Below the pieces are notes generated by a model. That model was not told where the DNA came from and did no database searches. It was given only the letters and a program-made list of their open reading frames with translations. From Blastocladiella emersonii ATCC 22665 (taxonomy: Eukaryota; Fungi; Blastocladiomycota): DNA of 64,000 nucleotides. The stretch spans positions 1,612,001 through 1,676,000 of the forward strand of contig JANHCV010000008.1 in NCBI GenBank assembly GCA_025594325.1, given 5' to 3'. This document shows, one piece after another, positions 1 to 24,480 of the stretch. Position numbers and translations under genes: made by a program. Position 1 is the first letter of the stretch. Each line of letters starts with the position of its first letter.

Positions 1-881
1 CGAGCTGGCACGTTAAACTGTTCGTGTGAGAGACCTAAAAAGTCGCTTGCGAGTTTACATGGATGGACGATGAAACACTCTGCATTTGCGCCCTTGACAA
101 GTCGGAGTTCAGCAACGAAGCGAATGGCATTGAAACTGACCTCAAGTTTCAGATCGCCGTCGCTGTTGGGATTAAAGTACCCAGTCACGCTGGCCAGAGT
201 GGATGCAAGTGTTGCCTGCGTATAGAACCCGCGGGGAATCGTGTACTTTGACCGTAACCCAGTGACTTGCCCACTCTTGATTTGATCCAGCGATGTTCCA
301 AGCGGGAACACAGTCATATCCAGGAAGTCGTTTGTTGCGTCGACGCTATAGATGTTGTTCTCTATTGTAAAATCCAAGAGTCGGACGTGCGAGAACCTTG
401 AACCAGGTGGGAGCGGAATACGACCATCCGCCTGGACATCCGCGTTGGTGAAAGTGAAGACGTGCTCCTCAGTGGGATGTGACGCCTGGTGCTGTAGTTC
501 GAGTGCCTTTTGCCGAGCATCAACCGGTGCCGTGTAGACCGCACTTGATACTGTATCGACGGGAACGGCGTCAATGGAGAACGGCATGGTCGCAGTCGCT
601 TCCAGATCACGGCGAGTCACTGTGGGTACGCTCGGAAGTTCCTTGAGCATGCGTCGCTTAGCCTTTGCCTCAGCCGACACTGGGTTCACTGGTCGAAAGA
701 CTTTTTTTGTGCCATCCCTGGAGATACTCACAATCTTCTTGATCTTGAGGACGCGTTTCATGGGCCTTTGCGCAATGGGGATATCGTTCTCCTTGTTTCG
801 GATCCGGTCAGTGTCAGTCTCGGGCCGCGACCCAGTTGGTGCGCGGGACGTTGGACGCGTGCTTGGGCGTTGCCGATTCAT
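1..881 (-). CDS. Minor capsid (penton) protein, PLV/Polinton type, 3'-partial; missing from the supplied ORF track
   Basis: Manual translation from the ATG at 881 stays open to the window edge: MNRQRPSTR...FTIENNIYSVDATNDFLD...YTIPRGFYTQATLASTL. This resembles the 'N.Y.I...N' and 'IP.G.Y....L...L' penton motifs. Basic N-terminal extension. Confidence 0.75.
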   Translation of the reverse strand, partial: MNRQRPSTRPTSRAPTGSRPETDTDRIRNKENDIPIAQRPMKRVLKIKKIVSISRDGTKKVFRPVNPVSAEAKAKRRMLKELPSVPTVTRRDLEATATMPFSIDAVPVDTVSSAVYTAPVDARQKALELQHQASHPTEEHVFTFTNADVQADGRIPLPPGSRFSHVRLLDFTIENNIYSVDATNDFLDMTVFPLGTSLDQIKSGQVTGLRSKYTIPRGFYTQATLASTLASVTGYFNPNSDGDLKLEVSFNAIRFVAELRLVKGANAECFIVHPCKLASDFLGLSHEQFNVPA

Positions 882-899
882 TTACAGTACCCAAGGAAT

Positions 900-1661
900 T
901 TAATTCACGTACTTTTCGAACCGTTTGGTGAGCAGTCTCGCCTTGCTATTCTTGTAATTGACGTGCATGAACGAATAGTCCTCGGCAGTACAGTGATTAT
1001 AGATCTGCAACCACCGGTCCCAAGTCTTGCCACAATGATGCTCCTCGTAAAAGTTTTTCACTTCCTTTTGATTGCCCGTTGAGAACAACAGAAAGTTGGT
1101 TGTGTTGAGACGAAGCGGCTTGGCAAGCTGGAAGTAAGATTGTGTGACGTAGACCGTGGAAATCATGTAGTGTCGCCCGTTCATGACACAATCAATGAGG
1201 ACTTTGCTTTTAAGCACACCCGTTGCCGCGCAATCGTCGAGTACAAGGAGTACGGGCTGTCGATCGCGTTTGGGGATGGCTTTTTGCGACTCGATGAGTT
1301 CGTAGACCACGTTTTCAAAGGTCGCGGCATCCGTATGGACATCCGCCTCGGATGGAACGGTGGGGTCTTCAAGGTCATCGTCTGGGAACAGTCGCGCTTC
1401 GGCCTTGTCTTTGCGGCGGGGCTTTGAGAGGATTCCTGGCGCGAAGATGTGTTTCCACTTCTCGTCGCTTTCAAACGATGGACAGCACACGACAAGCCGG
1501 CTAAACTGGCCCTTGTAAAAGCGTGTGATCATGTTCAGTAGCGTGAGCGTCTTGCCACTTCCACGACATGCTACGATCGCACACGAAAAGCACACTTTGG
1601 GGATGAGCGAGTCCGGGCCCTTGGCGTCGCCCTTTTCTCGTAACGGTTTGATTTCGAACAT
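900..1661 (-). CDS. A32-like DNA packaging ATPase (FtsK-HerA superfamily)
   Basis: Walker A ACRGSGKT, Walker B LLVLDD, and the A32-type segment GRHYMISTVYVTQSYFQLAKPLRLN. Confidence 0.93.
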   Translation of the reverse strand: MFEIKPLREKGDAKGPDSLIPKVCFSCAIVACRGSGKTLTLLNMITRFYKGQFSRLVVCCPSFESDEKWKHIFAPGILSKPRRKDKAEARLFPDDDLEDPTVPSEADVHTDAATFENVVYELIESQKAIPKRDRQPVLLVLDDCAATGVLKSKVLIDCVMNGRHYMISTVYVTQSYFQLAKPLRLNTTNFLLFSTGNQKEVKNFYEEHHCGKTWDRWLQIYNHCTAEDYSFMHVNYKNSKARLLTKRFEKYVN

Positions 1662-1676
1662 CTTTACGGTATACCA

Positions 1677-1769
1677 TCAAAAGTATTTGCGTTTGAGCCA
1701 CAGAGCACACTGGACACACTCTACGGCGAGAACGTATCCGCCAAAATACATTAAAGCAGTTGAGAACAT
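1677..1769 (-). CDS. Possible 30-aa hydrophobic micro-protein (MFSTALMYFGGYVLAVECVQCALWLKRKYF)
   Basis: ATG-to-TGA ORF that fills the gap between two viral genes. Hydrophobic stretch followed by a basic tail. Below the ORF-track cutoff. Confidence 0.4.
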   Translation of the reverse strand: MFSTALMYFGGYVLAVECVQCALWLKRKYF

Positions 1770-1798
1770 GACTGATTTAATGTGTGATGAGAAAATAT

Positions 1799-2104
1799 TT
1801 AGGCGCCTTCTGAAAGCGCTCGGTCTATAGCGTGCCCTACGTGGGCAATACTGTCAAGAATCGGATCAACGCGGAGAATGGCTTCCTCAGCCAGGCCGCT
1901 TGCAAGGTTCACGCCAGCTGCAATGTCGCGAAGGACGGGAATCGGAAGACTCGAGATCATGCCGCTGTAGTACTTGGTATTATGTATAACGGGCGAGACT
2001 TTCTCGTGGAGAATGCGTTTCCCATAGTCGATACCAGTAACGAGCGCTTTGGCGGCAATCCCCGCGTATCCTTTCAAGTTATTCCAAGCGTTTGCAAACC
2101 ACAT
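1799..2104 (-). CDS. Small candidate virion protein with N-terminal amphipathic helix (adenovirus pVI-like, putative membrane-lytic)
   Basis: MWFANAWNNLKGYAGIAAKALVTGIDYGKRIL shows amphipathic periodicity. Located in the virion module. Function is inferred. Confidence 0.55.
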   Translation of the reverse strand: MWFANAWNNLKGYAGIAAKALVTGIDYGKRILHEKVSPVIHNTKYYSGMISSLPIPVLRDIAAGVNLASGLAEEAILRVDPILDSIAHVGHAIDRALSEGA

Positions 2105-2119
2105 TGTTTAACTATAGGC

Positions 2120-2650
2120 TCAGGAAAAAAGATGCGAAAAGTCTTGCACTGCAGATTTGGGCTGACGGGGATTCTGGAGTCGTTTTGGTTTGGCAGCGGG
2201 TTTGGGCACAGGTTTGGGCGGCGGGTCATCATACGAGCTCTCTGACTCGGATTCCGAGACATACACGACGCGTTGGCGCTGTTTCTTGGGCTTGGGCTTG
2301 TACACGACAATTTCTTCCTCCGATTCCGACTCGGACACTTGCACAGCCGCTTTCTTGGAAGCGATCCGAGTAGCGAGTTCCTTGAGCTTGGTCTTTTGTG
2401 CGGCAGCGAGGTCTTTCTTGCGTTGGGCCAGATTGGCGGCACGGACTTCGCGTGCTTTCGCCAGTGCATCCAGTCGCCGCTGCTTGATCACGTCCGGATC
2501 AGTTTCTTTAGGGAGTGCACTGCCGCCACGTTTCTGTTTCCACAGTTTCGCATTCTTGATTTCAGAAAGAACTTCCTCAACCGAGGCATCTGAGGTATCT
2601 GTCGCGGATGTTTCAAGGATGGGCTCCTCTACGGGCTGAGTGCGCGGCAT
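2120..2650 (-). CDS. Charged low-complexity viral protein (candidate core/DNA-binding)
   Basis: 176 aa with an RLDALAKAREVRAANL helix, K/R-rich and SESESE-rich tracts. Starts at GTAAATG. Confidence 0.65.
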   Translation of the reverse strand: MPRTQPVEEPILETSATDTSDASVEEVLSEIKNAKLWKQKRGGSALPKETDPDVIKQRRLDALAKAREVRAANLAQRKKDLAAAQKTKLKELATRIASKKAAVQVSESESEEEIVVYKPKPKKQRQRVVYVSESESESSYDDPPPKPVPKPAAKPKRLQNPRQPKSAVQDFSHLFS

Positions 2651-2675
2651 TTACAGTATCCTCAGAAAAAGATTT

Positions 2676-2927
2676 CTACGACGCAGTCTTCGTTTTCAGT
2701 TTCAAGAGCATTCGCTGTCTGATCTGAGAAATGTTTTCTTTGTGCGGGTCACTTGTGTGTTGGCGAACCAGGTCTTGCATCTTACGGAGACGCTTTGCCT
2801 GTCGTTTTCCAGAGATTTGGTTTTCTACCGGTTCCACGGGCCGTTCCTGAAGCGAAAAGGCAATGGACACGTCGTCGCTAATCGTATTCCGTGGGTCGTT
2901 GATCAGGACAAGCTCGGACAAATCCAT
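2676..2927 (-). CDS. Hypothetical viral protein (83 aa)
   Basis: Co-oriented with and tightly packed against its neighbours; preceded by GTAAAG. Confidence 0.6.
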   Translation of the reverse strand: MDLSELVLINDPRNTISDDVSIAFSLQERPVEPVENQISGKRQAKRLRKMQDLVRQHTSDPHKENISQIRQRMLLKLKTKTAS

Positions 2928-2953
2928 CTTTACTGAAGCCCGTCAAAAAGATT

Positions 2954-3733
2954 TCAAGTACTTGTGCGGCCGAAGGGCACTTTACAGACGTCCAAGAGCA
3001 CTCGGACAAAGAACTGGTACCCAGACATGTCCTTGACAATGGTCATGGTGATCCGGTTTTGCTCGTTTTTATCAAACTCGACAGAATGGGCTGCAGTATC
3101 GAGATGAAGGCGGTGGCGGTAGATATCGCGAAAGTACACTTGGCATCCCACAATGTGGTTCAGATCCGGAGTTGGGAGGATATTGGTGATGTCGAAAGTG
3201 TGCTGCGACTCGGACAGCGTCATGTCGTAATCGAGCAAAACGCGTTTGATGGGCAGGCTATGGGAACCAAAGTAATCGGCCTCCACGGTTCCGTCCATGC
3301 GAGCGTCGCCCTTGACGTAGAACGCGTTTTCGTCTGGCGGTGGGCCATTGTGCAGGATACTGAGGCCGTGATACGACAGATTCGTGACAACTTCAGGCGG
3401 ATCGTCGCTACGGCCAGGCGGAGCAACGTACTGGCAAACCTTTACGGTGCCGTTACCCATGTCTTCGGCCTCCATTGCGTACTGCGGACCACCTGGTCGG
3501 TACCGCCATGGCGACATTGCAAATCGCGTAGTTTCTCCTTCACCGCCTGGTCCTGTAATGCTAAACACGGCGCCGTCTTCCTTGGTATTTGAGTGCAGTC
3601 GCAGTACGGCGTCAGTTTCAATATCGACACTTCCATTGGCAAGTTGGATCGTGAGGTCTTGGTGGCGCTGGTCCATGACCTGGGACGAGAGCGTTCGGAC
3701 GCGGAGTGAGCCGTTTGCAGTTGTGGATGCCAT
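2954..3733 (-). CDS. Hypothetical viral protein (259 aa), beta-rich, possibly fibre- or capsid-associated
   Basis: Clean ORF starting at GTAAATG, divergent from the fibre gene. The FYVKGDARMDGTVEAD segment resembles fibre shaft repeats. Confidence 0.65.
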   Translation of the reverse strand: MASTTANGSLRVRTLSSQVMDQRHQDLTIQLANGSVDIETDAVLRLHSNTKEDGAVFSITGPGGEGETTRFAMSPWRYRPGGPQYAMEAEDMGNGTVKVCQYVAPPGRSDDPPEVVTNLSYHGLSILHNGPPPDENAFYVKGDARMDGTVEADYFGSHSLPIKRVLLDYDMTLSESQHTFDITNILPTPDLNHIVGCQVYFRDIYRHRLHLDTAAHSVEFDKNEQNRITMTIVKDMSGYQFFVRVLLDVCKVPFGRTST

Positions 3734-3782
3734 TTACTTGAACGCACGATTTTAAATTCAGCGGCGTGGGCAGTGATCGGCG

Positions 3783-3798
3783 ACATCCCCAGGGATGC
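3783..3798. promoter_or_regulatory. Dyad ACATCCC-CA-GGGATGC in the divergent intergenic region; recurs at 6901, 9190, 12454 and 12482
   Basis: Palindrome with a 2-bp spacer. The 16-mer at 3783 is the exact reverse complement of 12454-12469. Function unknown. Confidence 0.5.
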
Positions 3799-3848
3799 CC
3801 GTGTCAGCGTACGGTCATGTCGTGCATTTTTATCTCTCCAAAGTGTAA

Positions 3849-6494
3849 ATGGACTTGAACACGCGAAACATCTTTGGGTACGCACCTGGTACCGGTACTC
3901 CAACTGTGGTCGCCGATCCGGTGGCCATTGACAGCGTCTCAAACCTTGCAACAAAGGCGTACTGTAACGCCAACTCTGGAGTGGCTGCGGGGACCAACAT
4001 CGTTGTTACTGGCAAGACCGTTGCAGTGAGTGACCTACCTGGATTCTCCCAAGTCACGCTATCTGAGCCACCCACACTTCCAACGCATGCCGTGACCAAG
4101 GCCCACCTTGAATCAAAACTTTCAAACGTGATTGGCGCAGGTCCTGGTGTGAATGTCATTGGAAACGTCGTATCGGTAAAGGTGGACGACGCGACGCTTG
4201 GAGTTGGGGCACAGGGAATCTATGTCAAGTCCGGTCTTGCAGCTGGATCAGTGACGTCTGCGGCGATTCAAGATGGTTCGGTGACCACGGCAAAGCTGGT
4301 CGATGCATCTGTCACGCCTGAGAAACTCACAAGTGTGCCATGGACAAAAGTTACGGCTCCGCGGATCACAAACGCCATGCTGGCTGAACCCGTTGCCGAC
4401 GCAAACATTGCCAGCGTTTCAGCGACCAAGGTCGTGGGCCAATTTGCACAGAGTCAGCTCCCAAACACGATCGACGCGGGCCGAATCGGCGGTACACTTG
4501 CCGCGGCTAATCTCCCTTTGACTATTGACGCTGGCAAACTCACTGGATTGGTTCCGGTGTCGTGTCTTCCCGCAACGACATCGACAGCTGCATCGACCAT
4601 CACTGGACTCATCACCGACTCCCAAATCGCCGGAGTGTCCGCATCCAAGGTTTCGGGCGTACTTGCTGCTGCGAACATCCCCACGGTATTCTCAGGGATG
4701 ATTGCCTCCCTTGAAACGACCAAGTTGAACGGGCAGATCACAAATGCCCAAATCGGTGCCGTAGATGCTGCAAAGATTACGACTGGAACCATTGACTTGG
4801 CTCGACTCCCTGATGTTTCAAACAAAGTTGGTTCTCTGTCCGGCCTTGCACTTGTTGATGCATCTGTTTCGGATGCCAAACTTGTGAGTGTTTCTGGTGG
4901 AAAGCTCGTTGCGGGTTCAGTAGGTACATCAGCACTCGCTGACTTGGCTGTTTCGAACGCCAAACTTGCAACGGGAATCGACGGCGCCAAAGTCACGGCC
5001 GGATCTATTGGCAATGTCCAACTCGCAAGCGGTGCTGTCTCGGACATCAAGGTCGCGGACGTTTCTGCCGCAAAGCTGACAGGTACACTCGATGTTGCAC
5101 GCATTGCTGACGGTTCGATTGGCAATCTCAAACTCGCAACGGGAATTGATGGCGCCAAAGTCACGGCCGGATCTATTGGCAATGCCCAACTCGCAAGCGG
5201 TGCTGTCTCGGACATCAAGGTCGCGGACGTTTCGGCTTCCAAGCTCACTGGCACACTCGATGTTGCACGAATTGCGGACGGTTCGATTGGCAATCTCAAA
5301 CTTGCAATGGGTATTGATGGCGCCAAAGTCTCGGCCGGATCCATTGGAAATAGCCAGCTTGCAAGCGGTGCTGTCTCGGACATCAAAGTCGCGGACGTTT
5401 CCGCTACAAAGCTCACTGGAACTCTGGACGTGGCACGTATCGCGGACGGTTCTATCGGGAATCTCAAACTGGCCACAGGAATTGACGCTACGAAACTCGC
5501 AGGAACCATCGACATTGCCCGTCTTCCCGATATTTCCTCAAAAGTGACATCCGTGAGCGCATCCGCACTAACAGGCACAGTGCCTCAATCCGCACTTGGA
5601 CTTGGCGCGACGTTTGCGTTTACGAATACGACGGATAGCACATCGACTTCATCTGGTGCGATCACGATTAACGGCGGACTTGGAGTGAATAAACAACTGT
5701 CCGTGCCCAACATTCTGGTCCGAAACTTTACGAGCGCGAATATGGTCTTTGACAGTGCGGTAAACACGCTGACGTACGTCGACTTTAAACAAGCTGGCGT
5801 CATCAAGAACAATCTCGCATGTACTGCCGCAGGGAATCTCGAACTCGCATCCGCAACGACGGGCGGCGTATCCCTGGCAGCTGGCGGTGGGAACGTGGTC
5901 ATCGGATCAGCGACCCTTGGAACAGAAAAACTTCGAGTCAACGGCACTGGTCGGTTCACTGGCCAACTCACACTCGACCTTGCTCCAGTGGCGGGCACAG
6001 ATGCCGCGAATAAAGCGTACGTCGATAATCTCATGGCTACAAATCGGTGGGGACAGGTTCTCATCAACTCGGCGAGTTTGTCGTTTTTATCCGGACAATC
6101 CCAGGTCATCACGGGCGCAAACAGTCAAGGCGCGGCGATCGTAAACTCGACAAGTCCCGGGTTCCTGGGTCTTGGAGCAACCAACGGCTGTTTCACTGTC
6201 AGCGCAACGGGATGGTACGCACTACGCAGTCAGGGCTGGTACACGCAGGGAAGTACGGTCACGGAGCACATCGCGACTTACTCGCTGTATAATGCCACCG
6301 ACTCGACGGTAGCGGGTAAGGACTACATTGGACTGCTGGCACGAGCTCTCTGTAAGTTCGCGTCGGATCAATACATGGGAGGCAGTGCTACAGTGTACCT
6401 TGAAGCCGGAAAGCAGTACGGGTTCACGTGGTCTTCCACCGTTTCCATGACCCAATCCGTTCACGTCACTCTTGACCTCTTCTTTATGCGCTGA
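3849..6494 (+). CDS. Fibre/receptor-binding-like protein (881 aa) with internal repeats and a C1q/TNF-like C-terminal head
   Basis: ATKAYC, AVTKAHLE and DAANKAYVD fibre-type motifs; many I.A.K[VIL]TG repeats; C-terminal FTVSATGWY...VYLEAGKQY beta domain. Confidence 0.7.
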   Translation: MDLNTRNIFGYAPGTGTPTVVADPVAIDSVSNLATKAYCNANSGVAAGTNIVVTGKTVAVSDLPGFSQVTLSEPPTLPTHAVTKAHLESKLSNVIGAGPGVNVIGNVVSVKVDDATLGVGAQGIYVKSGLAAGSVTSAAIQDGSVTTAKLVDASVTPEKLTSVPWTKVTAPRITNAMLAEPVADANIASVSATKVVGQFAQSQLPNTIDAGRIGGTLAAANLPLTIDAGKLTGLVPVSCLPATTSTAASTITGLITDSQIAGVSASKVSGVLAAANIPTVFSGMIASLETTKLNGQITNAQIGAVDAAKITTGTIDLARLPDVSNKVGSLSGLALVDASVSDAKLVSVSGGKLVAGSVGTSALADLAVSNAKLATGIDGAKVTAGSIGNVQLASGAVSDIKVADVSAAKLTGTLDVARIADGSIGNLKLATGIDGAKVTAGSIGNAQLASGAVSDIKVADVSASKLTGTLDVARIADGSIGNLKLAMGIDGAKVSAGSIGNSQLASGAVSDIKVADVSATKLTGTLDVARIADGSIGNLKLATGIDATKLAGTIDIARLPDISSKVTSVSASALTGTVPQSALGLGATFAFTNTTDSTSTSSGAITINGGLGVNKQLSVPNILVRNFTSANMVFDSAVNTLTYVDFKQAGVIKNNLACTAAGNLELASATTGGVSLAAGGGNVVIGSATLGTEKLRVNGTGRFTGQLTLDLAPVAGTDAANKAYVDNLMATNRWGQVLINSASLSFLSGQSQVITGANSQGAAIVNSTSPGFLGLGATNGCFTVSATGWYALRSQGWYTQGSTVTEHIATYSLYNATDSTVAGKDYIGLLARALCKFASDQYMGGSATVYLEAGKQYGFTWSSTVSMTQSVHVTLDLFFMR
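4977..5480 (+). repeat. Three tandem 168-bp (56-aa) coding repeats in the fibre gene
   Basis: IDGAKVTAGSIGN.QLASGAVSDIKVADVSA.KLTGTLDVARIADGSIGNLKLA.G starts at 4977, 5145 and 5313. Confidence 0.95.
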
Positions 6495-6495
6495 T

Positions 6496-7607
6496 TCAGT
6501 GGCGCACCGTACCCCTAAATCGACCAGGTTCGCGTCGATCACGTTCCGGCGGCTTGCGTGGCTCGATTGGCTGCTTAGTGCGCGTCTGTGGTGCTGGTCG
6601 CTGTGGCGCAACGCGTCCCGGCGGCTCACGTGATACTGAAACGGGCTGGAGATCAGTTCGAGAGTAAAACCCGACGCGACCGGCGACTTTATAGCTCGGA
6701 TTACTCACCCCCGAACCCTTGCGGACTTTGGTGACTTGGTGCAATGTGTCGCTCCACACCGGCTTTCCCTTGGACTCTCACTGGGTCTTGTACGGAATGC
6801 GCACGCGAACGAGCTGGCCGACTTTCAGCAACGCGCTCAGTGGATCACCCTCTCTGGTTTGCCCCGAGCGGCACGGATGGCTTTGAGCTCTGTCTTGGCG
6901 ACATCCCTGGGGATGTTGTCGTAGGCGTTCGGCGCTTTACCCGTCCCACGACTCTTGGACTTGTTGATCACGTCCTCGATTACCTTGAGGTGTTTTGGCC
7001 AGTCGTTGTTGCCTTCAATCGACATCCACGGGATGAGCATTGACTTGATTGTACGATTCATTCGTTCTGCAACTCCCTGGCCTTGGGGCACTCCGGGTTT
7101 GCCTTTAATGTGCTTCACAGTGGTCCCGGCCACAATGGTTGCAAACTCTGTCCCGTTATCCGTCTGGATCGTAGCGGGATTCAAATTGTGTTCCTCTACG
7201 ACCTTGTCCCAGATTGCCCGCACGTTGGCCGCTTCGCGTTTCTTTACGGGTCGGAGATAGACTTTACGCGTGGCAAGGTCGACAGCGACGAGAATTGCAG
7301 TGTAACCGTTAAAGTGCTTTGCTTCGCCCATGATAATCGAGTCCATCTGGAAGTTGCGGCCGGGACTAACGGACGAGATCACACGAATGTCGCGGTGCTT
7401 GTACTTGGGCTGTTTATATTGCTGCCACACTGATTGCTCTCCAAGCCATTTTTCGAGTTGGGCTCGGTAGATGTGCTGCCCTGTACTTTCCGCGGTGATG
7501 ATATCAAATAATCGCCTGATGCCGACGCCAACGTGGCCCTTTTTATAGCACAGGTTGCTCAAATACTCTGATTGAGCATCCGTAAGTGGTTCTTCGTGCG
7601 GATACAT
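6496..7607 (-). pseudogene. Polinton-type rve (DDE) integrase with C-terminal frameshift and premature stop
   Basis: The core 6837-7607 has QMDS, QTDNGTEF and AERMNRTIK. The C-terminal domain LKVGQLVRVR...PVWSDTLHQVTKV...FYSRTDLQPV continues in another frame after a shift near 6850-6855, with an in-frame TGA at 6778-6780. It ends 1 bp from the stop of the fibre gene. Confidence 0.88.
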
Positions 7608-7631
7608 TATATTAACAAGGAGAAATATCCA

Positions 7632-8984
7632 TCAGTTCTTGCCGACCATGTACGTGTCGACGTGAACGCCCACGGAATGACCCATGGCATGGGCGCGAGC
7701 CTTGATCTCGTTGTACGCCTTCGTGTTCTCAGGCGCGCTGATCCGGCGCAGCTTCTGGACTCCAACGTCAAGTCCAACGAGCTTGCCACTGCGGCCAACG
7801 TCTTGGCACCACTTCTTGCACAGCGCCTCGGCGTCATCAATGCTGTCGGCAAACACGAAATCAAAGCCCTGGTCGCGGCGGTACTTGATAAACTTGGCGA
7901 GCATGTTAGCCTGGTCGTCGGCAACGCGGTGCTTGAAGTCGTATCCGCGGCCGGCCGTCTTGATCACAATGGGACCGTAAATGAGCTTCGTCTCAGGGTC
8001 GTAGTGCGGGAAGTGGTCCGTCTTATCCACAGTGAGGAATGCGAGGTCACTGCGAACCGTAGTCAGAGTCTGGAGGTAAAGCTGCAGCTGGTGGACCTTG
8101 CTGGCGAGGCTGACTTCCTTGTCCAGCGTCCAGTCAAACTTCTCGTTGATCGCCTTCAGAACCTCAGCCTGAGTGGGCAGCGTGCCGGCTTCCTCCTTGT
8201 TGCGGGCCTCGCGCTTCTGCTTACGAAGCTCCTGGGCGTGCTTCGAGTACTGATCAGCAAGCTCATTGTCGCCGTTCCAGTTGCAGTACACGCTGAGCCA
8301 CTTGGCCGTGTCCAACTGGAGCGCATCCGGCGGGTTGTTCTTTCCCTTTTTGTTGTCCCACTTGACCATGGCGGCCTTCACAGCATCCACGTTGTGCATC
8401 GAGACGCCTGAAGCCATGAACTTGGTGAGAATGCGGTTCGCCGTCGCTTTATCAGTATCGCTGCGCTTCCCGACTTCCTTGTTGGCCTTGATGATGTCCG
8501 CGTTCTTGAACTCCTCAATCGACTTGGCTGTGATCGTCTCGAACTTGAGCTTCTTTGCGGGGCGCTCCGGCACGGTGGTCTCAGACGCGTCGCTCATGAC
8601 CACGTCCGCGGACGAGTGATCAGCCGCGTGATCCGAGTCACGTGACGTGTCGTCACCGCCATTGCCGGGCACGGTCGACGCCTCTTGCTCCATCTCATTG
8701 TAGGGGCGCTTCAGCGCGCGGCGACAATGCGAGTCCAGAACCAGCTTGAAATCCCGAACGTGCAAAACACAGTCAAAAACTTGATCATTCACATTAGACA
8801 TGCCTATAAGCAGCGTATCAGACTGAGCCTCAATGACTTTGAAGCGTGGGGCGAGCTCAGCCACGTGGCTTGCGATCGCTTGCTGCTGAGCCTTGATGGC
8901 TTGGAGGCGGGGCTCAAGCGCGCCCATGAACTCCTTGGTGGCTTGAGCGAGGATGTCCTTGACCAGAAGCTCGAACGACGCCAT
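7632..8984 (-). CDS. Tyrosine recombinase, PLV/virophage-type, with coiled-coil and acidic N-terminal extension
   Basis: Catalytic-like residues in order: TVRSDL (R), VIKT (K), QKLRRI (xxLR), AMGHSVGVHVDTY (H...Y at the usual spacing). Confidence 0.8.
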   Translation of the reverse strand: MASFELLVKDILAQATKEFMGALEPRLQAIKAQQQAIASHVAELAPRFKVIEAQSDTLLIGMSNVNDQVFDCVLHVRDFKLVLDSHCRRALKRPYNEMEQEASTVPGNGGDDTSRDSDHAADHSSADVVMSDASETTVPERPAKKLKFETITAKSIEEFKNADIIKANKEVGKRSDTDKATANRILTKFMASGVSMHNVDAVKAAMVKWDNKKGKNNPPDALQLDTAKWLSVYCNWNGDNELADQYSKHAQELRKQKREARNKEEAGTLPTQAEVLKAINEKFDWTLDKEVSLASKVHQLQLYLQTLTTVRSDLAFLTVDKTDHFPHYDPETKLIYGPIVIKTAGRGYDFKHRVADDQANMLAKFIKYRRDQGFDFVFADSIDDAEALCKKWCQDVGRSGKLVGLDVGVQKLRRISAPENTKAYNEIKARAHAMGHSVGVHVDTYMVGKN

Positions 8985-9079
8985 TGTGCTTTACTACAGA
9001 GCAGGCAAAAAAGGTACGCGGGGATGTCCGCGTTTTATACGTTTGGCGTTATCGCTAAAAGTTTTCGCGCCTGTTGCTA

Positions 9080-9535
9080 ATGGACTCGCACTTGATGGGA
9101 TTCTTCCTGAGCCATGTCACTGACATCCCCAACACTGTATTCGATCCAGAACTCGTTCTGCAGCTTGACAGCGAAGCCATCGCAACGATATCCCCAGGGA
9201 TGGCGGATGCCGCGTTTGAGAAGGTCCGCGCACTCGCTGCCCGCGTGGCGATCGTCGAACTCGCTTTGAATCGCAAGCTTTCCAAGTGCCCGCTCACTTC
9301 CTGGGGCGAAAACACACTCCTCGAGCTCGTGGGCAAGTTCAAGGTCCGGAAGCTGGACGTGGACATTGCAGGAACTCTTGCCAAGTTTTCCATTCCAGAG
9401 TGCGAGGGGGAAAACATTCGCGCGGAATGGGAAGAAGTAAAGCTCGATGTGATGCTCAAGGCAATTGCAAAGGCATCTGTGCGCAAACTCGAAAAGAAAC
9501 AGAAGCCAGAAACGGCGGAAGATGACACAGAATAG
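9080..9535 (+). CDS. Hypothetical viral protein (about 151 aa)
   Basis: ATG at 9080, divergent from the recombinase. Helical, with a charged C-terminus. Confidence 0.55.
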   Translation: MDSHLMGFFLSHVTDIPNTVFDPELVLQLDSEAIATISPGMADAAFEKVRALAARVAIVELALNRKLSKCPLTSWGENTLLELVGKFKVRKLDVDIAGTLAKFSIPECEGENIRAEWEEVKLDVMLKAIAKASVRKLEKKQKPETAEDDTE

Positions 9536-9654
9536 ACGTTCCAGCGATCCAAAAGACATATCGATAGCTATTTCTGAAGAGTTATCGATAAACGCGCCAG
9601 ACGCATAAAAGCAGCCGGTTTTTCCTCTTGTGGGACAGTAAGAACATCCCCAAA

Positions 9655-12021
9655 ATGTCTTCTGCCGCCTCAAAGATTACCGAGACTGTCAAGGACCTTT
9701 CAAAGATTCTTGACCCGCTCTATGCTGTCCGCCTCATGGCACCAGTGAATCCCAAGGCCGTGGAAGCTCTACACAGCAAGGCGATCCAGTGTTCGTGTGC
9801 CGACCCAAAGCAACAGGCCAAGGAAACGAAAATCGTCAACTCAATCCGTCGCAAGATGAATAAGCGCGGTGAAATCGAGACCATCTACAAGTTCTCAGAC
9901 ACGACAAACTCTGGTCGACTTACTACCACGCCTACTACTCCTGGGCTACAAAAGATTTGCGGCGAAACGCGTGCGTTCCTGTTCGAGGGCGTGCTCCAAG
10001 ATATCGACATGCACAACTGTGCGCCAACCATCATCTACCAACTGGCTCGTCACTACGGCCTTGAGTACCCGCTCTTGACAGAGTACATTCAGAATCGAAG
10101 CCTGGTACTGGATCGACTGGGGATGAGTAAGACCGATTTCTTCGCTGGCGCATTCCACAAAAAGTGCCCGTCGGAACTCCCTGCGGATTACAAGATGTTC
10201 CATGCGTTCCTGTACAACGTGGTGGTGCCCAAGTTCCAAGAGATGCATCTGGACGTGTGGGCCATGTCGTCGCCAAAGCATCCCAATCGCCAGGGCTCAT
10301 TCCTCTCGTTCGTCTATCAGTGCGTCGAGTGCAAGGTTCTGCTCCACGCCAAAGACTTTTGCGCCTCGCGTGACATCAAGGTCGCGGTTCTCATGTACGA
10401 CGGCATGATGGTCCGTGCCTCAGATCAGATCAACGAGCAGTTTATGGCCGACCTCGGTGCGTACACGCTCGAAAAGACGGGTTTTGATATCAAGTGGGCC
10501 GAGAAAACCATTGTCGCGCCCTGTGCCATTCCAGAGCCCGAGGAAGAGGAGGAGGAGAAGACGCCCGAGGAGGAAATCTCCGAGTTCATCATCCACGAGT
10601 TTGAGACCAAGGGCTACGCCAAAGACGGCGACACGATCTACGCTGCATCCGAGGCCAATCCATTCTACTACGAACCGCTGATGACAGTGGCAGAGTACAC
10701 GTCGTACCTGCTCGACGAAGTGTTCATTCAGTACTTTAACAAGAACGCGCACAAGTACGCTCGCGATGTTGCTGCTCGTCTCGGCCACGGTTCCAAGCAC
10801 ATCCGCCAGTACAAACCGAATCGCAGCCTGATCGCATTCAAAAACGGCGTTCTGTTCACGGGCACGAAGCGCAATCGCCAGTGGGGGCTTTACAGTTTCG
10901 AGGACATTGAGAACGACCGCGAGCGATTCGAACGCGAAGTTTGCGGCGGATGCCCTGTGGCATGGTCGTACATTGACAACGAATTCGACTTTAGCATTCC
11001 GCGCTCGGAATACGGCAACCTCGACCTCGGCCCGTACCGCGACGTTCTCGATCTACAGATGGGCGAGGACCCCGAGGCAATCAAACAGTACATCATGCTT
11101 GCGTTCGGCCGTTCATGCTTCCCTGTAGGCGAGCTCGACAACTGGCGTCTTTGCCTCATTACGTGGGGCGAGTCGGGTACAGGCAAGACTCTGACAATGG
11201 ATCTGCTCAAGGAAATCCACGGAATCCAGCGCATGAGTATCATGGAAAGCGGGGCGAAGATGACGCCGTACACAATCGGTTACGTGCGCGAAAAGCCATT
11301 CTGGATTCTCCAGGATGTGGGCAAGGACGTGATTGCCAAACTTGGTCAGTCGCTGTTCAAGAACGCATCTGAGGGCGGCGGTCTCATGGGCGGCATGAAG
11401 CATCGCGACGAAGACACCAAGCAGTTTACCACCCATATCATGATGACGCTCAACTACCTCGTACAGTTCCAGGAAGAAAGTGGCGAAACCTCTACTCGAA
11501 TGGTCATTGCCCATTTCAAGAACAAGCCGGCTCGCAAGGACGACAAGATTTTCAAGCGAATCGTGGACAAGTACCTGATCAACATTATCGTCACGGGTCT
11601 TTCGGCGTATCATTCGACTCTGGATCACCTTGACGCGAACCCAGAGCAGACCTTCCGCGATGATGTGCTGAGTCCATTCTTCAAGCAATCCAACGAACAG
11701 GCGCGTGTGCTTAATGACGTTTATGGCAAGGCGATCCTGGCACAGGACTCGGGGTTCGTGGTCACTCAAGACCCGGCCGACTACGTGGGACTGGACGAGA
11801 TTCAGAACGCGGGCAATGTCTCGATTTCCGCCAAGTGGAACGACGAGCTCATGGCAGCGATTGGACTGAAGGCCGATCGCATCAAGGTGTGTCGGAACTG
11901 TGGAAAGAAACACGTCAAGGGGTGCTGTGCAGACTACAGTCGTACGGCCCGCTCTTCAAAGCGAGTGGTGACTGGAATCCGCCGCGCCCGTTTCTCAGAT
12001 GGCACAGAGGACGACGACTGA
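9655..12021 (+). CDS. PolA-like primase-polymerase (TVpol) fused to D5-like superfamily 3 helicase, with a C-terminal Cys/His cluster
   Basis: SGRL...LQ...R...DIDMHNCAP (motif A-like) and LMYDGMMV (motif C-like). Helicase motifs IAFKNGVL, WGESGTGKT, ILQD and TLNY. Terminal CRNCGKKHVKGCC. Confidence 0.88.
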   Translation: MSSAASKITETVKDLSKILDPLYAVRLMAPVNPKAVEALHSKAIQCSCADPKQQAKETKIVNSIRRKMNKRGEIETIYKFSDTTNSGRLTTTPTTPGLQKICGETRAFLFEGVLQDIDMHNCAPTIIYQLARHYGLEYPLLTEYIQNRSLVLDRLGMSKTDFFAGAFHKKCPSELPADYKMFHAFLYNVVVPKFQEMHLDVWAMSSPKHPNRQGSFLSFVYQCVECKVLLHAKDFCASRDIKVAVLMYDGMMVRASDQINEQFMADLGAYTLEKTGFDIKWAEKTIVAPCAIPEPEEEEEEKTPEEEISEFIIHEFETKGYAKDGDTIYAASEANPFYYEPLMTVAEYTSYLLDEVFIQYFNKNAHKYARDVAARLGHGSKHIRQYKPNRSLIAFKNGVLFTGTKRNRQWGLYSFEDIENDRERFEREVCGGCPVAWSYIDNEFDFSIPRSEYGNLDLGPYRDVLDLQMGEDPEAIKQYIMLAFGRSCFPVGELDNWRLCLITWGESGTGKTLTMDLLKEIHGIQRMSIMESGAKMTPYTIGYVREKPFWILQDVGKDVIAKLGQSLFKNASEGGGLMGGMKHRDEDTKQFTTHIMMTLNYLVQFQEESGETSTRMVIAHFKNKPARKDDKIFKRIVDKYLINIIVTGLSAYHSTLDHLDANPEQTFRDDVLSPFFKQSNEQARVLNDVYGKAILAQDSGFVVTQDPADYVGLDEIQNAGNVSISAKWNDELMAAIGLKADRIKVCRNCGKKHVKGCCADYSRTARSSKRVVTGIRRARFSDGTEDDD

Positions 12022-12534
12022 ACCCACTACCAAATGGCCGCCTACTCTATCAACCTATTTTGTGTCTCTGTGTCTCTGTGTCTCAGCTATAATATTCTTT
12101 TCTATAAATTGAAGAAAAAAATAGTAACATACTAAGTATGTATGTTGTTTTCAGTTCAAAATACGATTTACAAGTGAAATCGCAGGGACACTGGGTCACT
12201 GGGACAAGACTCACCAACCCTCATCGATACTCTCACTGACTGACTCACCATTTCCTCACCGCGCCGACGGATTCATAGACCGTTTGCCAATATCGCCCAT
12301 GCCCGTCATGGATTTCAATTCATCGAATAATCGCAAAGTCATTTCGAGACGCGTCGCGGATCAGATGACCGTCACGTGGGCCGCGAGACACTTGGAGACG
12401 CGTCGACTTATCACGTGAGGACCCTCCGCCACTTCGTGGCTGCGGGCGCGCGCGCATCCCTGGGGATGTTTCTGACGGGCGTCCCCAGGGATAGACCTAA
12501 CCACATCTACCTCTATAGCCATTTAATCCTATCC

Positions 12535-12560
12535 TGAGGTATCCTTATAAGGATACCTCA
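12535..12560. repeat. Perfect 26-bp palindrome TGAGGTATCCTTATAAGGATACCTCA
   Basis: Read directly from the sequence; centred on TTATAA. Confidence 0.95.
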
Positions 12561-12587
12561 TGAGCAGAGGTTTGTCTCGCTGGACGC

Positions 12588-12803
12588 TGTTGCGTGTCGT
12601 TCATGTGGCCACGACCGCGGTGATCAATCATCTGATCTCGCGTGAGCCGCCCGCAATCCCTCGCTCCCGCGCCGCCGCACCCCGCTGCGGCGCGCCCTGC
12701 TTTGTTATCCATTCTCCCCTCTCCCCGTCTTGGGTTCGGGGCCGAAGGCAGGAATAGACATCCCTGACTACTCGTCTCCCGCCTCCTCCTGTCGGCATCA
12801 ACA
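12588..12803 (+). mobile_element. Solo LTR (family A, 216 bp)
   Basis: TGTTG...CAACA termini flanked by the 5-bp TSD GACGC on both sides. Homologous to 44364-44584. Confidence 0.85.
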
Positions 12804-13393
12804 GACGCATTACCGTTGAATCCCTGGGTTCGTCCTGCCGCGCACCACGTCAAGTGTAGACTCTCAGTATGTAGAAAGCGGCTCACGGTTACTGAAGTTG
12901 GCGTTTGAGACTGAGACCATCCTCTGGGGATGGGTGTGACAGAGTGTTTAGCTCTTACGACGTTGAATCTCCGACCTATATCTCAAAAGGCATTTAAATT
13001 CTAATTTATTGCCATGCTGCCGTGTTACATGGTCGCAAAGGAGAGGGGTGACGAGCGCGGCGAAACGACGCTGTTCACGTGCTTGCGTCCCTCACGTGGG
13101 CGTCACATGATAGTTTGTCGCGTCTTGCACACCATATGTCCGCCCAGCTGATTGAGCAGCTGAAACATAAAAGTCAATAAAAAAAAGATATGCTAAATTA
13201 GCGTTGAGCCGACGGCGCTATCGTTACACTCGCAACCCAGAACTCGAGCCGGGAAACAATTGACTGATTGAGAGTCGTCAGCTCAAATGACATTGACATG
13301 ATTTCCCTACCCGTCTTGTTCAGTTTTTCTCACGCTTGTTCCAATACGAATATTTATACACCCATTTTCACTTCCGATGAGACAGTCAGCGAC

Positions 13394-14125
13394 TAAACCC
13401 ATGAGTAAACCCTGACTAGACTCGGACCAAACCCGCATCAGACTCGGATCAGACCCTGACTAAACTTCAATTGAACTGCGACTAAACCTCGACTGAACCT
13501 TGACTAAACCTCAACAAAATCTTGATTAAACCGTGACTGAACCTCAACTAAACCTCGACTGAACTCAGACTGAACTCGGAGTAAACCGCGACCAAACCTT
13601 GACTGAACTGTGACCAAACCAAGACCAAACCTGAAGTAAACCGCGACCAGAACTCGACTAAACCTCGACTAAACCAACACCAAACCTGAAGTAAACCTCA
13701 AGCAAAACGCGAGCAGAACGCGAGCAGAACGCGACTGAACCGCGACTAAACCGCGACTGAACCGCGACTAAACCGCGACTAAACCGCGACTAAACCGCGA
13801 CTAAACCGCGACTAAACCGCGACTAAACCGCGACTGAACCTCGACTGAACCGCGACTAAACCGCGACTAAACCGCGACTAAACCGCGACTAAACCGCGAC
13901 TGAACCTCGACTGAACCTCGACTAAACCTCGACTGAACCTCGACTGAACCTCGACTAAACCTCGACTAAACCGTGACTAAACCTCGACTAAACCTCGACT
14001 AAACCGTGACTGAACCTCGACTAAACCTCGACTAAACCGTGACTGAACCGCGACTGAACAGCGACTGAACTCGGAGTAAACCGCGACTGAACGCGACTGA
14101 ACAGCGACTGAACCGCGACTGAACC
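13394..14125 (+). repeat. Left subterminal array of 11-bp units (ACCGCGACTAA / ACCTCGACTGA variants)
   Basis: Dozens of tandem units, degenerate near the TIR and homogeneous at about 13740-14040. Confidence 0.95.
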
Positions 14126-14599: not shown

Positions 14600-15460
14600 C
14601 CGCGGCCACCACCGCCGCCGCTACCACTCCTTGATGTTGAGCGACTTGATCTCGAACTTGACGCTGGCGACGGCTGTGGTCGCCGGCCGTCGCAGCAGAT
14701 CGAACTTGGACTTGTGCGCCGCCGACAGCCGTCGCCCTGGTGGTGAGGGACGCGGAGTCAGCAAAGCCGGGCGTGGGAGATGATCGTGCGTGAGAGACGT
14801 ACTGCGAGGTCATGGTCGCTCAGTCCCACTTGTCCGCGCACGACAGCGAGTCGAGGAACTTGTCGATCTTGGCGCCAGCGCCCGACAGCTTGATCTGCAG
14901 CGGGAGGTGCGTGTGCGTCAGCAAGGTGCTCAAGGTGCGCGTCCATTGCAGCAAACCAGGTCGGGAACGCACCGTGACCAAAGTTGCCCTCAATCGCGCG
15001 GTACTTGACCTTGATCGCCTTGGCGAGGCCGAGGAACAGCACGTCAGAGTCAATGGTCATGGTCGGGGCCGTGGTTGACGTTGCTCGAGGTCTTGACGGC
15101 CGTTGCAGACGCGTCCTTGATGACCATGGCGGTACAGTCGGTGATCGAGTCGAGCTTGGCCTCGCCGACGCCTTGGGCACGCGGACGACGGCGCCCACGA
15201 GTGCCGACACCCGCAGCAAGTGAGAAAGCGTACCGCATCGCCAGGGAGCTTGGCGGCCTTGATCACGTCGGCGAGGAACGCGGTTGCTACGCGGCCGAGG
15301 ACGCGTCAGAAAGCGGGTCACGTCGTAGCCGCGGTGATACACGCGCACACCTTGTCGAACGCGGCCGTGCACGCGCTTAGTGAGGCCCTTGTCGAACAAC
15401 TTGGTCGAAGCGGATGCTCGGCCTTGCGCGCGTCACTGAGGCGGTCGATCGCGTCAAACG
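14600..15460 (-). pseudogene. Degenerate multi-frame gene fragment of unknown family inside the CMC-like element
   Basis: Coding-like segments (KLDSITDCTAMVIKD, LFLGLAKAIKVKYRAIEGNFGH, QIKLSGAGAKIDKFLDSL) lie in different frames. Confidence 0.35.
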
Positions 15461-16329
15461 AGGCGCACTTGGTGTTTTCGAGGCGTTGGTCGACACAATC
15501 GCTCGGTGGGCGGAGATCTGGACGAGTGAGGTGACGAAGGGGACGGGTCAGCGTGGTTCGAACGACGTGTTCAAGGCGGCGAGTGATAAGGGGGTGATGG
15601 CAGGCGGAACCGAGCCAATCCGCCGCGGAGGACGATCGGCAGCGGTCCCGCGCGTGGCGAGGTTGACGAGTGTCGAGGGGAAGGGCGGAAGTGGGGCGGA
15701 TGAGTGGACGGAATACGCGCGCTCGCGGCGACTCAGCACGACGCGGATGCACCGCCGCAGCGGCGGCGTACGCCTCCTTGGTGGCCCCGGGCACGTCTCG
15801 GGGGTCGGTTCGTCGTCTTAGGCGAGCGTGGAGGGCGCGGACACGACTCTGGCATGGCGAGCGAGGCGGCGAAGGCGGCCTCACGACACGGGCGCCGCCG
15901 CGGCGCGGGCGACAGACAGACGAGAGCCGCATGCGATGCGGAGGGGGTGGATGCGTCGTGTTCATGGTGATAGAGGGGTGAGTTGAGTACTTGGCGGTTC
16001 GGCGGGAGCCGCAGCCATCCGCGGCGAACGCGCGCGCTCAAGAGCGATCGGCAAAAGTCGAACGCGTCACGTGGCGTGACCTTCGCGTCCTTCGCCTCCC
16101 TCACCGCTCGACGTACCATTCAAACCATCCACTGACTCTATGCAACCAACTCAAAGTGTCGAGCTCTACTTACACCGTCCCTGGAGATGTCGAATCCGTG
16201 TGATTGCCCTTAAAGGCTCCTGACCTCAATGTCGTCACCCGTCGAGCTCAAGATTTTCACGCGCCGGGAGTTCAACTGAACGTTGATCCGCGCATCAGCG
16301 CCGACTGGATGTTTGCCCTGATTCTCAGG

Positions 16330-17090
16330 CGTTGTTCGAGCATCCGCTTGAGCTCATGAACGACCGCATTCTGGGAGCAGCGCACAAGTGGGTTCCGGAC
16401 GCTCGGCGCAGCGAGAGGCCGACAACCCGCTGCTGGGTCCCGACGACGTCAAGGTACCCCGTGTGCGCGCGATCTGTATCGCAAGCACAAGAAACTGACG
16501 CTCTCGACCCGCGGCACGTGAAGTTCTCCATGTCCAAGGCGCGATCTCGTTCGAGGCCTTTTCGCTCGGCGGGTTCCGCAACAAGCAGCTCACGGGCAAG
16601 TGTCAGTTCCCAACCCACGGCAAGTCGCACACGGACTGGGTCATGGTACGCTGCTGGCTGTGCTCATACCCGAATCGTTCGGTCGCTAACATCTGCTATC
16701 TCGCGTACGGTAGTATCTCACGTCGGACAAGAAGTACCGCGTCGGGAAGCTGGCTGACGCGCTGCACTCCACGCACAACGGCACCGAGCACGACGTGGCC
16801 ATCGTCAAACAGATCCGCGTCCAGAACGACGCGCCGGGCAGCACCGCGACGTGCAAGGACTTTCCCGTGCAGGCGCTCGCCCTGCATCCCGTGGAACCGG
16901 GTATGGGCCTCGGTCGGTACCACGCCGTGAGTGTGACAGACTTCCAGACGTTCGTCCACGTCGTGCCCGACTCCAATTGGCCCGCGGCGCCGACGACCGC
17001 AGGCGCAGCCAACTTCAAGCTCGACGGCGAGTACCGGTGGCTGCTCTACCCGTTCAACTGCGCGGGGTCGGCCGCGCATCCCGTTGCCCA
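16330..17090 (+). pseudogene. Plavaka/EnSpm-like transposase C-terminal fragment with introns
   Basis: After removing GT-AG introns: GKCQFPTHGKSHTDWVM-YLTSDKKYRVGKL...VSVTDFQTFVHVVPD. This resembles the '..D.V.V...V.++' and 'V.+IP.F' tail of Plavaka-type transposases. Confidence 0.4.
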
Positions 17091-18269
17091 CTCGATGCAT
17101 TACTGTCCTTGGTCCCCTGCTTTGCGTGTGGCGGCGCGCTTTCGGGCGGCGCGGCGAGCTGAAAATGCCCACCCACGCTGAGGCGACGCGCGCGCACCGC
17201 CACCGCCACGGCCTTCCCGCTCGCCTGCGGCTTGGCTCCACTTCGACCTCCGACCTCCTCTGCCCGTCCTCTCTCCCGCATTCGAGCAGCGCCTGCTCCT
17301 GCTCCTGCTCAACCACCACTCTCGGCCGCCGTGTTGCAACCGCACCATTCACACCTCCAGCAACCCAACCCGCGCGCCGAGTCACCGCCGTCCTCGCCCT
17401 TCCTCCTCCCCCTCCTCTGCTGTTGGTCGCGCGTCGGCGCTGGAACGGCAGGCCACCCTCCGCCATGCCGACGTACGAACTTGACGACCTACCCGCTGCG
17501 GTGCTCGCCATGAACGTCTGGCGCTCGAAAAAGGCGCTTCGAGTCGGCCCCACTGGCTGCTTCAGCTGCGGCATCTGCCTCATGGGCGGCGAGGGGACTG
17601 CCGCGATCCTTTCTGCAGCGGTATGCTGCTTCCGCCGCCTGGGCAGAAGAGTACGTGCATCCAGCTTGGCCGCCGTCGCGCTGCAACTAACGCGCTTGCC
17701 CCTTGCTTCCGCGCGTAGCCATTGAATTTTGGCCCGGCACTACCAAGACGATGCCGGCCGGTGCTCGCGCTTTTCTCAAGTCGAAACCCAACGGTACCAC
17801 GCTGTTCAAGCACCTCAACACGGTGTTCGGCATCATTAGTCCAAGCAAGGTCGCCGTGAACATGTGCTCGACGTGCGACAAGGAGTACTCAGCTGCTTGG
17901 TACGCAGACTCGCTGGCGCACCACCCTGTCTTCGTGACAACTCACTCCCTCTCGTGCGCCGCGAGTCTAGTTTGCCCTCGGTTCCACTCGGCGCATCTAC
18001 GGCGCCCGCCCTCCATCACCCTGTCGACAACAACGACGGCGACTCGACGCTTTCGGAGCTGGAAAGCAACGCTGGCGCTGGCGCTGACCGTGGTGAGGAG
18101 GCGAGCGATGGAGATGATGACCACGACCACGACGAGTACGAGCAGCTTGACGAGCCCGCGCGCGCAAGCTCGAGTCGCCAGCCTGCTACTCGCCGTATTC
18201 CTGGTCCAACGTCGTCGCGCAAGCCGCCGGCCCTGCGGTCGCCTGCGTCAACCGCGTCTGCGTCAACGG

Positions 18270-20440: not shown

Positions 20441-20949
20441 CTGGTCACGTTCTGGTCTGGTTTTGGTCCAAGTCTGCTTTCAGTCTGCTTTCAGTCCACT
20501 CAGGTCATATTCAGGTTTGCTCCGAGTTGTCTCGGCGCTGGCTTCATTCAATTTCAGTCTGGTCTGAGTCTAGTTTGCGTTTAGTCCGAGTCTAGTTTGC
20601 GTTTGGTCTGCGTTTAGTCTGGTTTTGGTTTCAGTTTAGTCTGCGTTTGGTCCAGGTCTGGTCAGCTTTTGCTCGAGTTTGATTTTAGTTTAGTTTAGTT
20701 CCAGTTCAGTTTGAGTTTACTTTGGGTTCAGACTGAGTCTACTTTGGGGTTGATGTGGGCGTTTCAGGGTCTGCTCATAGTCTGACTCAAGTCGAATAGA
20801 ATTCTGTTTCTGGTTTGCTCGAGGTTTACTCTGAGTTCAGTCATGGTTGAGTTTAGATTTACTCTAGGTTTACTCTAGGTTTACTCTAGGTTTACTCGTG
20901 GTTCAGTCATGGTTCAGTTGAGTTTCAGTCACGGTTTAGTCTGAGTTTA
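20440..20949 (-). repeat. Inner part of the right subterminal 11-bp array (reverse complement of the left array)
   Basis: TTTAGTCTGAG / GGTTCAGTC-type units. Continues at 24189-24411 beyond the Harbinger insertion. Confidence 0.85.
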
Positions 20950-24411: not shown

Positions 24412-24480
24412 GTCGCTGACTGTCTCATCGGAAGTGAAAATGGGTGTATTGGACACTCCTAAAACATGCACAAAGCGATC

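Follow-up and report, generated by a model that had tools for sequence, protein, structure and literature searches.

We analyzed a 64-kb stretch of DNA from Blastocladiella emersonii ATCC 22665, referred to throughout as the window, and find that positions 1–12,560 are very probably the right part of a Polinton-like virus (PLV) integrated in a Blastocladiella chromosome. Positions 1–12,021 hold 11 open reading frames (ORFs) without introns, 92% coding, and the GC content is 0.54 in the element vs. 0.60 in the flank. PLV genomes are about 14–40 kb, gene-dense and without introns; of this element only the right part, 12.6 kb, falls inside the window. It encodes its own replicase and integrase, as PLVs do, and is a real PLV by every feature testable in the window. 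The six genes named in the original prediction, encoding penton, A32 ATPase, fibre, rve integrase, tyrosine recombinase (YR) and TVpol-SF3 helicase, are all found in place, with firm assignments for the ATPase, rve and TVpol-SF3 and moderate ones for the penton, YR and fibre.

The structural module begins at the left edge of the window, where a partial gene at 3–881 (minus strand) runs out of view. With a profile built from 43 penton-like ORFs, its product, which has a basic N-terminal extension, obtains 7.2 bits vs. a best of 1.9 among 500 shuffles, though only 4% in hhalign, and reaches 0.97–0.98 in the Atlas, where DUF5901 is found on 26% of one cluster; these comparisons point with moderate support to a penton or minor capsid protein. 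The adjacent gene at 900–1661 (minus strand) encodes a 253-residue A32-like packaging ATPase that matches Pox_A32 (PF04665) in Pfam with an E-value of 3.7e-9, has 2537 relatives at E ≤ 1e-3, the best at 38% identity, and gives a profile that matches the STIV B204 ATPase (E = 1e-3). In a quick tree of 88 ATPases it groups with three proteins that have no genomic context, with an SH-aLRT of 96. One ATPase relative, P0022, comes from the chytrid Boothiomyces sp. JEL0866, where its contig of 20,787 bp is probably another fungal PLV. The 881-residue product of 3849–6494 (plus strand) may be a fibre-like protein, as it matches PF09327 (E = 6.5e-6, with no passing stretch) and phrog_28766 (E = 5e-5), and its gene contains three 168-bp repeats at 4961–5485. 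The ATPase, the fibre and the visible part of the penton are all open frames.

Grouping of these ORFs with bacteriophage genes, which would speak against a PLV, is not what we observe. Neither the ATPase nor TVpol has a tblastn match in 50,697 phage records, and a tailed bacteriophage was rejected as a candidate; the fibre alone gives weak, partial matches in 45 of these records, at 27–32% identity to phage tail proteins. Single-protein scans of viral contigs with the ATPase and with the YR gave no match.

Two integrase-type genes follow the fibre on the opposite strand. The stand-alone, Polinton-type rve integrase occupies 6496–7607 (minus strand), with a core ORF at 6837–7607 that matches PF00665 in Pfam (E = 1.6e-9) and retains an intact DDE triad, D89/D150/E181, invariant in seven of seven aligned rows. 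A frameshift near 6850 carries the C-terminal tail into a different frame, which extends to 6496 and contains an in-frame stop at 6778–6780, so that the gene is broken in this copy, just as had been claimed. Contigs of three runs (X1, X2 and X3; runs X1–X4 are all of one sample) depart from the window at both lesions, and on visual inspection their frame looks open; these contigs may represent sister copies or another isolate, since the flank also differs slightly. The nearest relatives of the rve protein are stand-alone integrases of 380–415 residues on contigs of 3–16 kb, and one is also encoded by the metagenomic locus L080.

The YR gene at 7632–8984 (minus strand) lies upstream of rve and encodes a likely tyrosine recombinase of 450 residues. 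A first YR profile missed it (0.4 bits, 15% in hhalign), and an enlarged profile gives 11.1 bits vs. a best of 8.5 among 1000 shuffles. The residues R311/K342/R413/H436/Y445 occur in catalytic order, and the Atlas places the protein at 0.97–0.98 to Preplasmiviricota clusters, one of which carries Phage_integrase on 16% of its members. Pfam gives no match, a single-sequence fold reaches a pLDDT of 39.8, and a PDB sequence search was blank.

The replicase, at 9655–12,021 (plus strand), is a 788-residue fusion of a PolA-type primase-polymerase, labeled TVpol here after the literature, to an SF3 helicase. The PolA-type motifs DxD (116), Y..R (144) and YDG (248) are kept in seven of seven rows of an alignment with viral relatives, the Walker A motif lies at residue 505, and PHROG primase matches range from E = 4e-5 to 3e-4. 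An IMG/VR pattern search with the TVpol N-terminal domain returned 262 matches, 222 of which were confirmed as relatives, and PDB profile searches with the TVpol alignment and with an alignment of major capsid proteins (MCPs) gave no meaningful match. TVpol-SF3 holds the terminal replicase position, and no PolB is present among the 11 ORFs in view; a strict Polinton/Maverick, with protein-primed PolB (pPolB) plus rve, was therefore rejected for the part seen.

The replicase also appears to have been reshuffled between copies. The related copy P0005 and the window share 98% identity in the final 42 residues of the polymerase domain and 45% in the helicase; the P0005 helicase is nearer to P0004 of Allomyces (56%), and the window helicase is 74% identical to P0002 of Allomyces. 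An X1 contig leaves the window sequence at 10,562, which corresponds to residue 303 in an acidic linker, and rejoins it at 11,976. From these alignments, two helicase types seem to have been swapped onto one polymerase at the acidic linker, and both types are common to Blastocladiella and Allomyces.

Beyond the last gene, a non-coding region at 12,022–12,560 is a candidate terminal inverted repeat (TIR). Two copies of TCCCnnGGGA, at 12,457 and 12,482, form a stem here, the summed contig depth is about three times that of the element body, and contigs branch at 12,042. The region closes with a perfect 26-bp palindrome at 12,535–12,560 that ends in CA and is a candidate for the extreme right end; it is one of six palindromes with arms of at least 9, and the two longest others lie in a host repeat at 29.9–30.1 kb. 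That repeat (29,907–30,147) consists of three 103-bp units, each with a palindrome of 24–30 bp. At 12,560, at least two X4 contigs diverge from the window into other flanks, and at 12,588 the window is entered from other flanks by at least three contigs in X1, at least three in X3 and at least two in X4. The interval 12,588–12,941 has the form TG...CA, lacks a clear target-site duplication (TSD), behaves as a separate repeat and is probably of host rather than viral origin. A right end at 12,935, as first proposed, was rejected in favor of 12,560, where the viral end probably lies, which shortens the element by about 375 bp. A motif of the form ACGCGT...TCACGTGA occurs at 12,382–12,418 in the viral end and again at 22,597–22,622, 39,676–39,701 and 61,845–61,881 in host or transposon intergenic DNA, and possibly marks host transcription-factor sites.

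Two short motifs, both chosen after viewing the sequence, distinguish the element from its surroundings. TCCCnnGGGA is found at five places in the element and nowhere in the 51-kb flank (10 strand-counts vs. a Markov mean of 0.24). GTAAA(GA)TG stands at the start of six of the 11 ORFs, all in the structural module, with seven matches in 12.6 kb vs. two in the 51.4-kb flank (Markov mean 0.9, maximum 4 among 200). On the structural genes, this start-site motif may resemble the late promoters of giant viruses and poxviruses, such as the poxvirus late TAAATG.

The original prediction of a zoosporic fungal host is borne out, as 573 of 573 aligned helicase residues are identical to H9P43_006947 of B. 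emersonii ATCC 22665, on a contig of 1,801,506 bp. Several related copies are present in B. emersonii chromosomes. Among six TVpol matches, three are in the B. emersonii genome on different contigs (97, 99 and 49% identity, the latter two on contigs of 2.84 and 2.02 Mb), two are in Allomyces arbusculus (72 and 50%) and one is environmental; a fourth B. emersonii contig, of 1.38 Mb, has an rve relative (60%). In X1–X3 the element has about 2–3 times the summed contig depth of the far flank, a ratio that is not a copy number. The genome paper describes a HiFi assembly of 21 contigs with no clear contamination, and its main text has the words virus or viral in the references only (PMC9730499).

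A metagenome scan yielded eight loci, and two of the loci collected, L080 and L082, are the nearest ATPase relatives with genomic context; each has an MCP. L082 also encodes TVpol (E = 3e-19), an ATPase and a fibre, and the model of its MCP is a double jelly roll (pLDDT 70.7) that matches the MCP of PBCV-1 (E = 9e-17) better than those of Sputnik (5e-12) or mavirus (2e-10). We are confident that the Blastocladiella element is a capsid-bearing PLV, whose MCP gene would lie outside the view. L080 encodes a fibre, ATPase, MCP, penton, rve (E = 1e-22 to that of the window) and an adjoining YR-like gene (95% in hhalign); it resembles the window element in these genes and in an ATPase of the same broad group, and differs in having an AEP-type primase in place of TVpol, divergent rve and YR proteins and an AT-rich genome. 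In a partial, redundant set of 169 loci at E ≤ 1e-3, gathered by different queries (215 fetched minus 46 weak integrase matches), TVpol occurs with YR in 32 and with rve in one, and rve occurs without the others in four. A relaxed look shows a YR-like gene adjoining rve in L080 and L088/L089, and none in L203 or L049.

Three of the collected loci have features of their own. L203 has a TVpol-helicase gene beside a stand-alone rve (6902–11,283) and three capsid-like genes, with no YR in the 11.6-kb fragment. L088/L089 is a 20-kb element in which rve and a YR-like gene (9995–12,125) stand tail to tail and whose capsid and protease genes may resemble those of virophages. In L002, a 34,654-bp PLV-like IMG/VR contig, the available sequence folds back perfectly about its midpoint at 17,327/17,328. 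Its genes include those for a telomere resolvase of the ResT/TelK type (PF16684, E = 2.7e-11) and for an AEP-like/origin-binding helicase replicase (4381–5148 and 15,065–19,590); the contig is a candidate PLV with hairpin ends, or else an artefact of amplification.

Comparison with described systems narrows what is new. The proposal of an endogenous PLV in a zoosporic fungus is supported, and the accompanying statement that such viruses are little described goes too far, as integrated PLVs have been noted in Allomyces macrogynus and Spizellomyces punctatus, with an MCP confirmed alongside ATPase and helicase in A. macrogynus (Bellas and Sommaruga 2021, PMC7805220), and chytrid PLV ATPases are included in a 2026 framework. 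These elements resemble ours in having a zoosporic fungal host (of the same order for Allomyces), an ATPase, a helicase and an integrated state; the likeness is one of description. The part of the paper covered notes the MCP, ATPase and helicase of the Allomyces element and describes no integrase pair, ends or copies. With canonical Polintons/Mavericks and mavirus the element shares an rve with a Polinton-type tail, an A32 ATPase, a penton and a likely TIR, but pPolB and a protease are both missing from the part in view. Modules of the Polinton and Sputnik types are indeed both present, as proposed, but their mixture has a precedent, as mid-GC EMALEs of types 5–7, integrated in Cafeteria burkhardae, have rve, YR and a long primase/helicase without pPolB (PMC8547959). 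Those elements have a gene set like that of the window but are mavirus-type virophages with a protease, whereas the ATPase kin of the window element have PLV-type capsids and its host is a fungus. PLVs of the TVpol-S3H/YREC type from cryptophytes and freshwater metagenomes (PMC12220804; L042–L079 and L082) share TVpol-SF3, YR, the ATPase-penton order and a Lys/Glu-rich ORF, but lack a stand-alone rve and have proteins 22–29% identical to those of the window. In Halocafeteria elements, palindromes at the termini, adjoining TSDs, accompany rve and replicases other than pPolB, the illustrated palindrome being 52 nt vs. 26 here, and the part of the preprint covered reports rve and Yrec pairs for Halocafeteria seosinensis in virophages and not in PLVs (bioRxiv 2026.07.28.741278). 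Fungal PLVs, rve plus YR without PolB and terminal palindromes are therefore already known, the last two in Cafeteria/Halocafeteria virophages, and the novelty is lower than had been claimed; what is new is the set of stand-alone rve, YR and TVpol in a fungal PLV. The pairing of rve and YR is rare in PLVs, and one free-standing relative, L080, has it. We found no description of the Blastocladiella element among the top 20 entries of each literature search or in a passage search of a eukaryote-wide survey, although bioRxiv supplements, which were outside the search, may list one.

The remaining ORFs of the element are small or lack family matches. On the minus strand these are an ORF of 101 residues at 1799–2104 with no family match, a low-complexity, Lys/Glu-rich ORF with an ESESEEE motif at 2120–2650, an ORF of 83 residues at 2676–2927 and one of 259 residues at 2954–3733 that has no family match and is not penton-like by profile; an ORF of 151 residues lies at 9080–9535 on the plus strand. 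The Lys/Glu-rich ORF resembles ORFs beside the ATPase in freshwater PLVs (17 phmmer matches among 1188 ORFs, best E = 5e-6), and a BLASTP pair test for it was negative. Family scans reveal no cysteine protease among the ORFs of the element part in view. The earlier expectation of a protease to the left of the window is unnecessary, because most PLV groups lack one in the sources covered. An exact-match search of nine ORFs in a protein collection found none letter for letter, and Rfam gave no match.

The flank is eukaryotic DNA rich in transposable elements (TEs). It contains LRR and DUF4470 genes along with TE pieces of Harbinger, Gypsy, Tc1-like and helicase-bearing type. A Harbinger transposon of 3,245 bp, with DDE_Tnp_4 and Myb, is present in two almost identical copies in inverted orientation, at 20,949–24,193 and 38,105–41,349, the first inside an 11-bp tandem array. 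Arrays of the 11-bp unit AACCGCGACTA at 13,356–14,125, 20,558–20,949 and 24,188–24,449 have a unique flank in common, in opposite orientation, and are likely two copies of one satellite-bearing repeat. Other pieces are a Gypsy integrase tail with a chromodomain (25,951–27,027), two Tc1/IS630-like pieces (18,266–19,228 and 63,217–64,000) and a UvrD-like helicase fragment (41,501–42,553).

Several observations weigh against reading the locus as a two-integrase PLV with a palindromic end. The MCP, the left end, the TIR partner and a TSD, which for rve elements would measure 5–6 bp, are not in view within the window, and an MCP search with the L080/L082 alignment gave five environmental matches and none from fungi, with the 7995 best candidates scored, a result that is not evidence of absence. 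TVpol, YR and rve occur together in none of the 169 loci, the ATPase group that joins the window with L080 and L082 has an SH-aLRT of only 87 in the quick tree, and weak profile scores underlie the YR and penton calls. No contig among the short-read contigs listed bridges 12,042 to the flank; palindromes of this size are common in AT-rich relatives, and none was found at the available end of L080. The GTAAA(GA)TG motif was picked from the same ORFs in which it was counted, and the other five, including rve, YR and TVpol, have looser versions only. The YR has no PF16684 match and no similarity to the L002 telomere resolvase (E = 0.26), and its assignment as a ResT/TelK-type enzyme was rejected on sequence grounds.

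That the virus or a contaminant was mis-joined to a fungal contig would fit the unbridged junction among the short-read contigs listed, but is extremely improbable given related genes on four Mb-sized HiFi contigs and in a second genus, a depth only about 2–3 times that of the flank and the lack of a phage match for the ATPase and TVpol. A capsid-less or truncated, transposon-like relic unable to form virions is likewise quite improbable: the MCP is not seen and the search for it returned no fungal match, but the ATPase, fibre and visible penton are open, near-identical copies exist and the A. macrogynus element has an MCP with ATPase and helicase (PMC7805220). The integrase itself could be a transposon or retrotransposon fragment nested inside an ordinary YR/TVpol PLV, as in the part of the survey covered all 12 rve plus YREC cases among 8300 PLVs and virophages were nested retrotransposons (PMC12220804), and the host flank is TE-rich. 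We consider this very improbable, as no reverse transcriptase (RT), long terminal repeat or TIR is found around rve, its gene fills the interval between fibre and YR exactly, and its nearest relatives are the stand-alone integrases noted above, L080 included. Both rve and YR are probably native to this family: RT is absent, an unbroken rve frame would run to 6496 and stop two bases away from the fibre stop, the gap to YR is 24 bp, the tail resembles those of P0158 and L080, and rve and YR-like genes recur together in L080 and L088/L089.

A native rve could nonetheless be a decaying leftover in a transitional genome, in which a YR plus TVpol end module replaced an older PolB module. This accommodates the two lesions in the window copy, a published model of module replacement in PLVs (bioRxiv 2023.10.16.562556), the association of PolA replicases with YR and of PolB with DDE integrases (bioRxiv 2026.10.13.758929) and the 32 loci with TVpol and YR vs. 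one with TVpol and rve; but the X1–X3 contigs differ at both lesions, the DDE triad is intact, the element ends in CA and the rve/YR-like pair recurs in other loci, and we regard decay as improbable. A tentative possibility of more substance is that one virus uses two targets, rve inserting it into the fungal chromosome and YR into a co-infecting giant virus, as a virophage-like parasite of Mycodnaviridae. This division of labor has been proposed for virophages with rve and YR (PMC8547959; bioRxiv 2026.07.28.741278), and Mycodnaviridae infect Blastocladiomycota, with 30 of 58 Allomyces isolates PCR-positive and a polinton-like integrase on five viral contigs (PMC13533422). The start-site motif of the structural genes, with its possible likeness to giant-virus and poxvirus late promoters, would fit as well. 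Against it, the 64-kb window contains no giant-virus DNA, and the main text of the Mycodnaviridae paper has no mention of Blastocladiella (PMC13533422).

We favor a PLV in which rve is, with good probability, the chromosome integrase. The substrates of rve integrases end in CA, as known for retroviral integrases, and rve would have used the CA end of the element to insert it into the chromosome. Lacking a protein-primed polymerase, the element would have to complete its ends in some other way, and the terminal palindrome would fold into a hairpin from which the TVpol-helicase copies the excised genome; such priming, proposed for Halocafeteria elements (bioRxiv 2026.07.28.741278), is nearly an even proposition here. 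The YR might then resolve the ends after replication, as suggested in bioRxiv 2023.10.16.562556; a role as end or dimer resolvase is plausible without being probable, one as integrase into a giant virus is a tentative suggestion, and an idle relic is rather unlikely. To re-integrate, the window copy would rely on rve supplied by a sister copy, and dependence on a helper giant virus, e.g., a member of Mycodnaviridae, is close to evenly balanced. The most far-reaching version, which we consider unlikely as a whole, is an active, hairpin-ended, two-integrase PLV family of Blastocladiella and Allomyces that is latent, is induced by Mycodnaviridae via a late-promoter motif common to both, and also inserts into Mycodnaviridae.

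If this is true, fungi would have a defence of the virophage kind, and it could be tested in a model species amenable to culture. Descriptions of fungal DNA viruses are scarce, and infection of Blastocladiomycota by giant viruses has only recently been shown. The helicase swap between copies would provide a clean within-genome example of domain shuffling in a replicase, and the question of why some elements keep both rve and YR and end in palindromes also becomes testable. B. emersonii is a cultured model with a long-read genome, and a near-intact PLV present there in several copies opens virophage-like protection of fungi to experiment, with the fungus as a laboratory-grown host in which to ask whether such viruses reactivate and interfere with fungal giant viruses.

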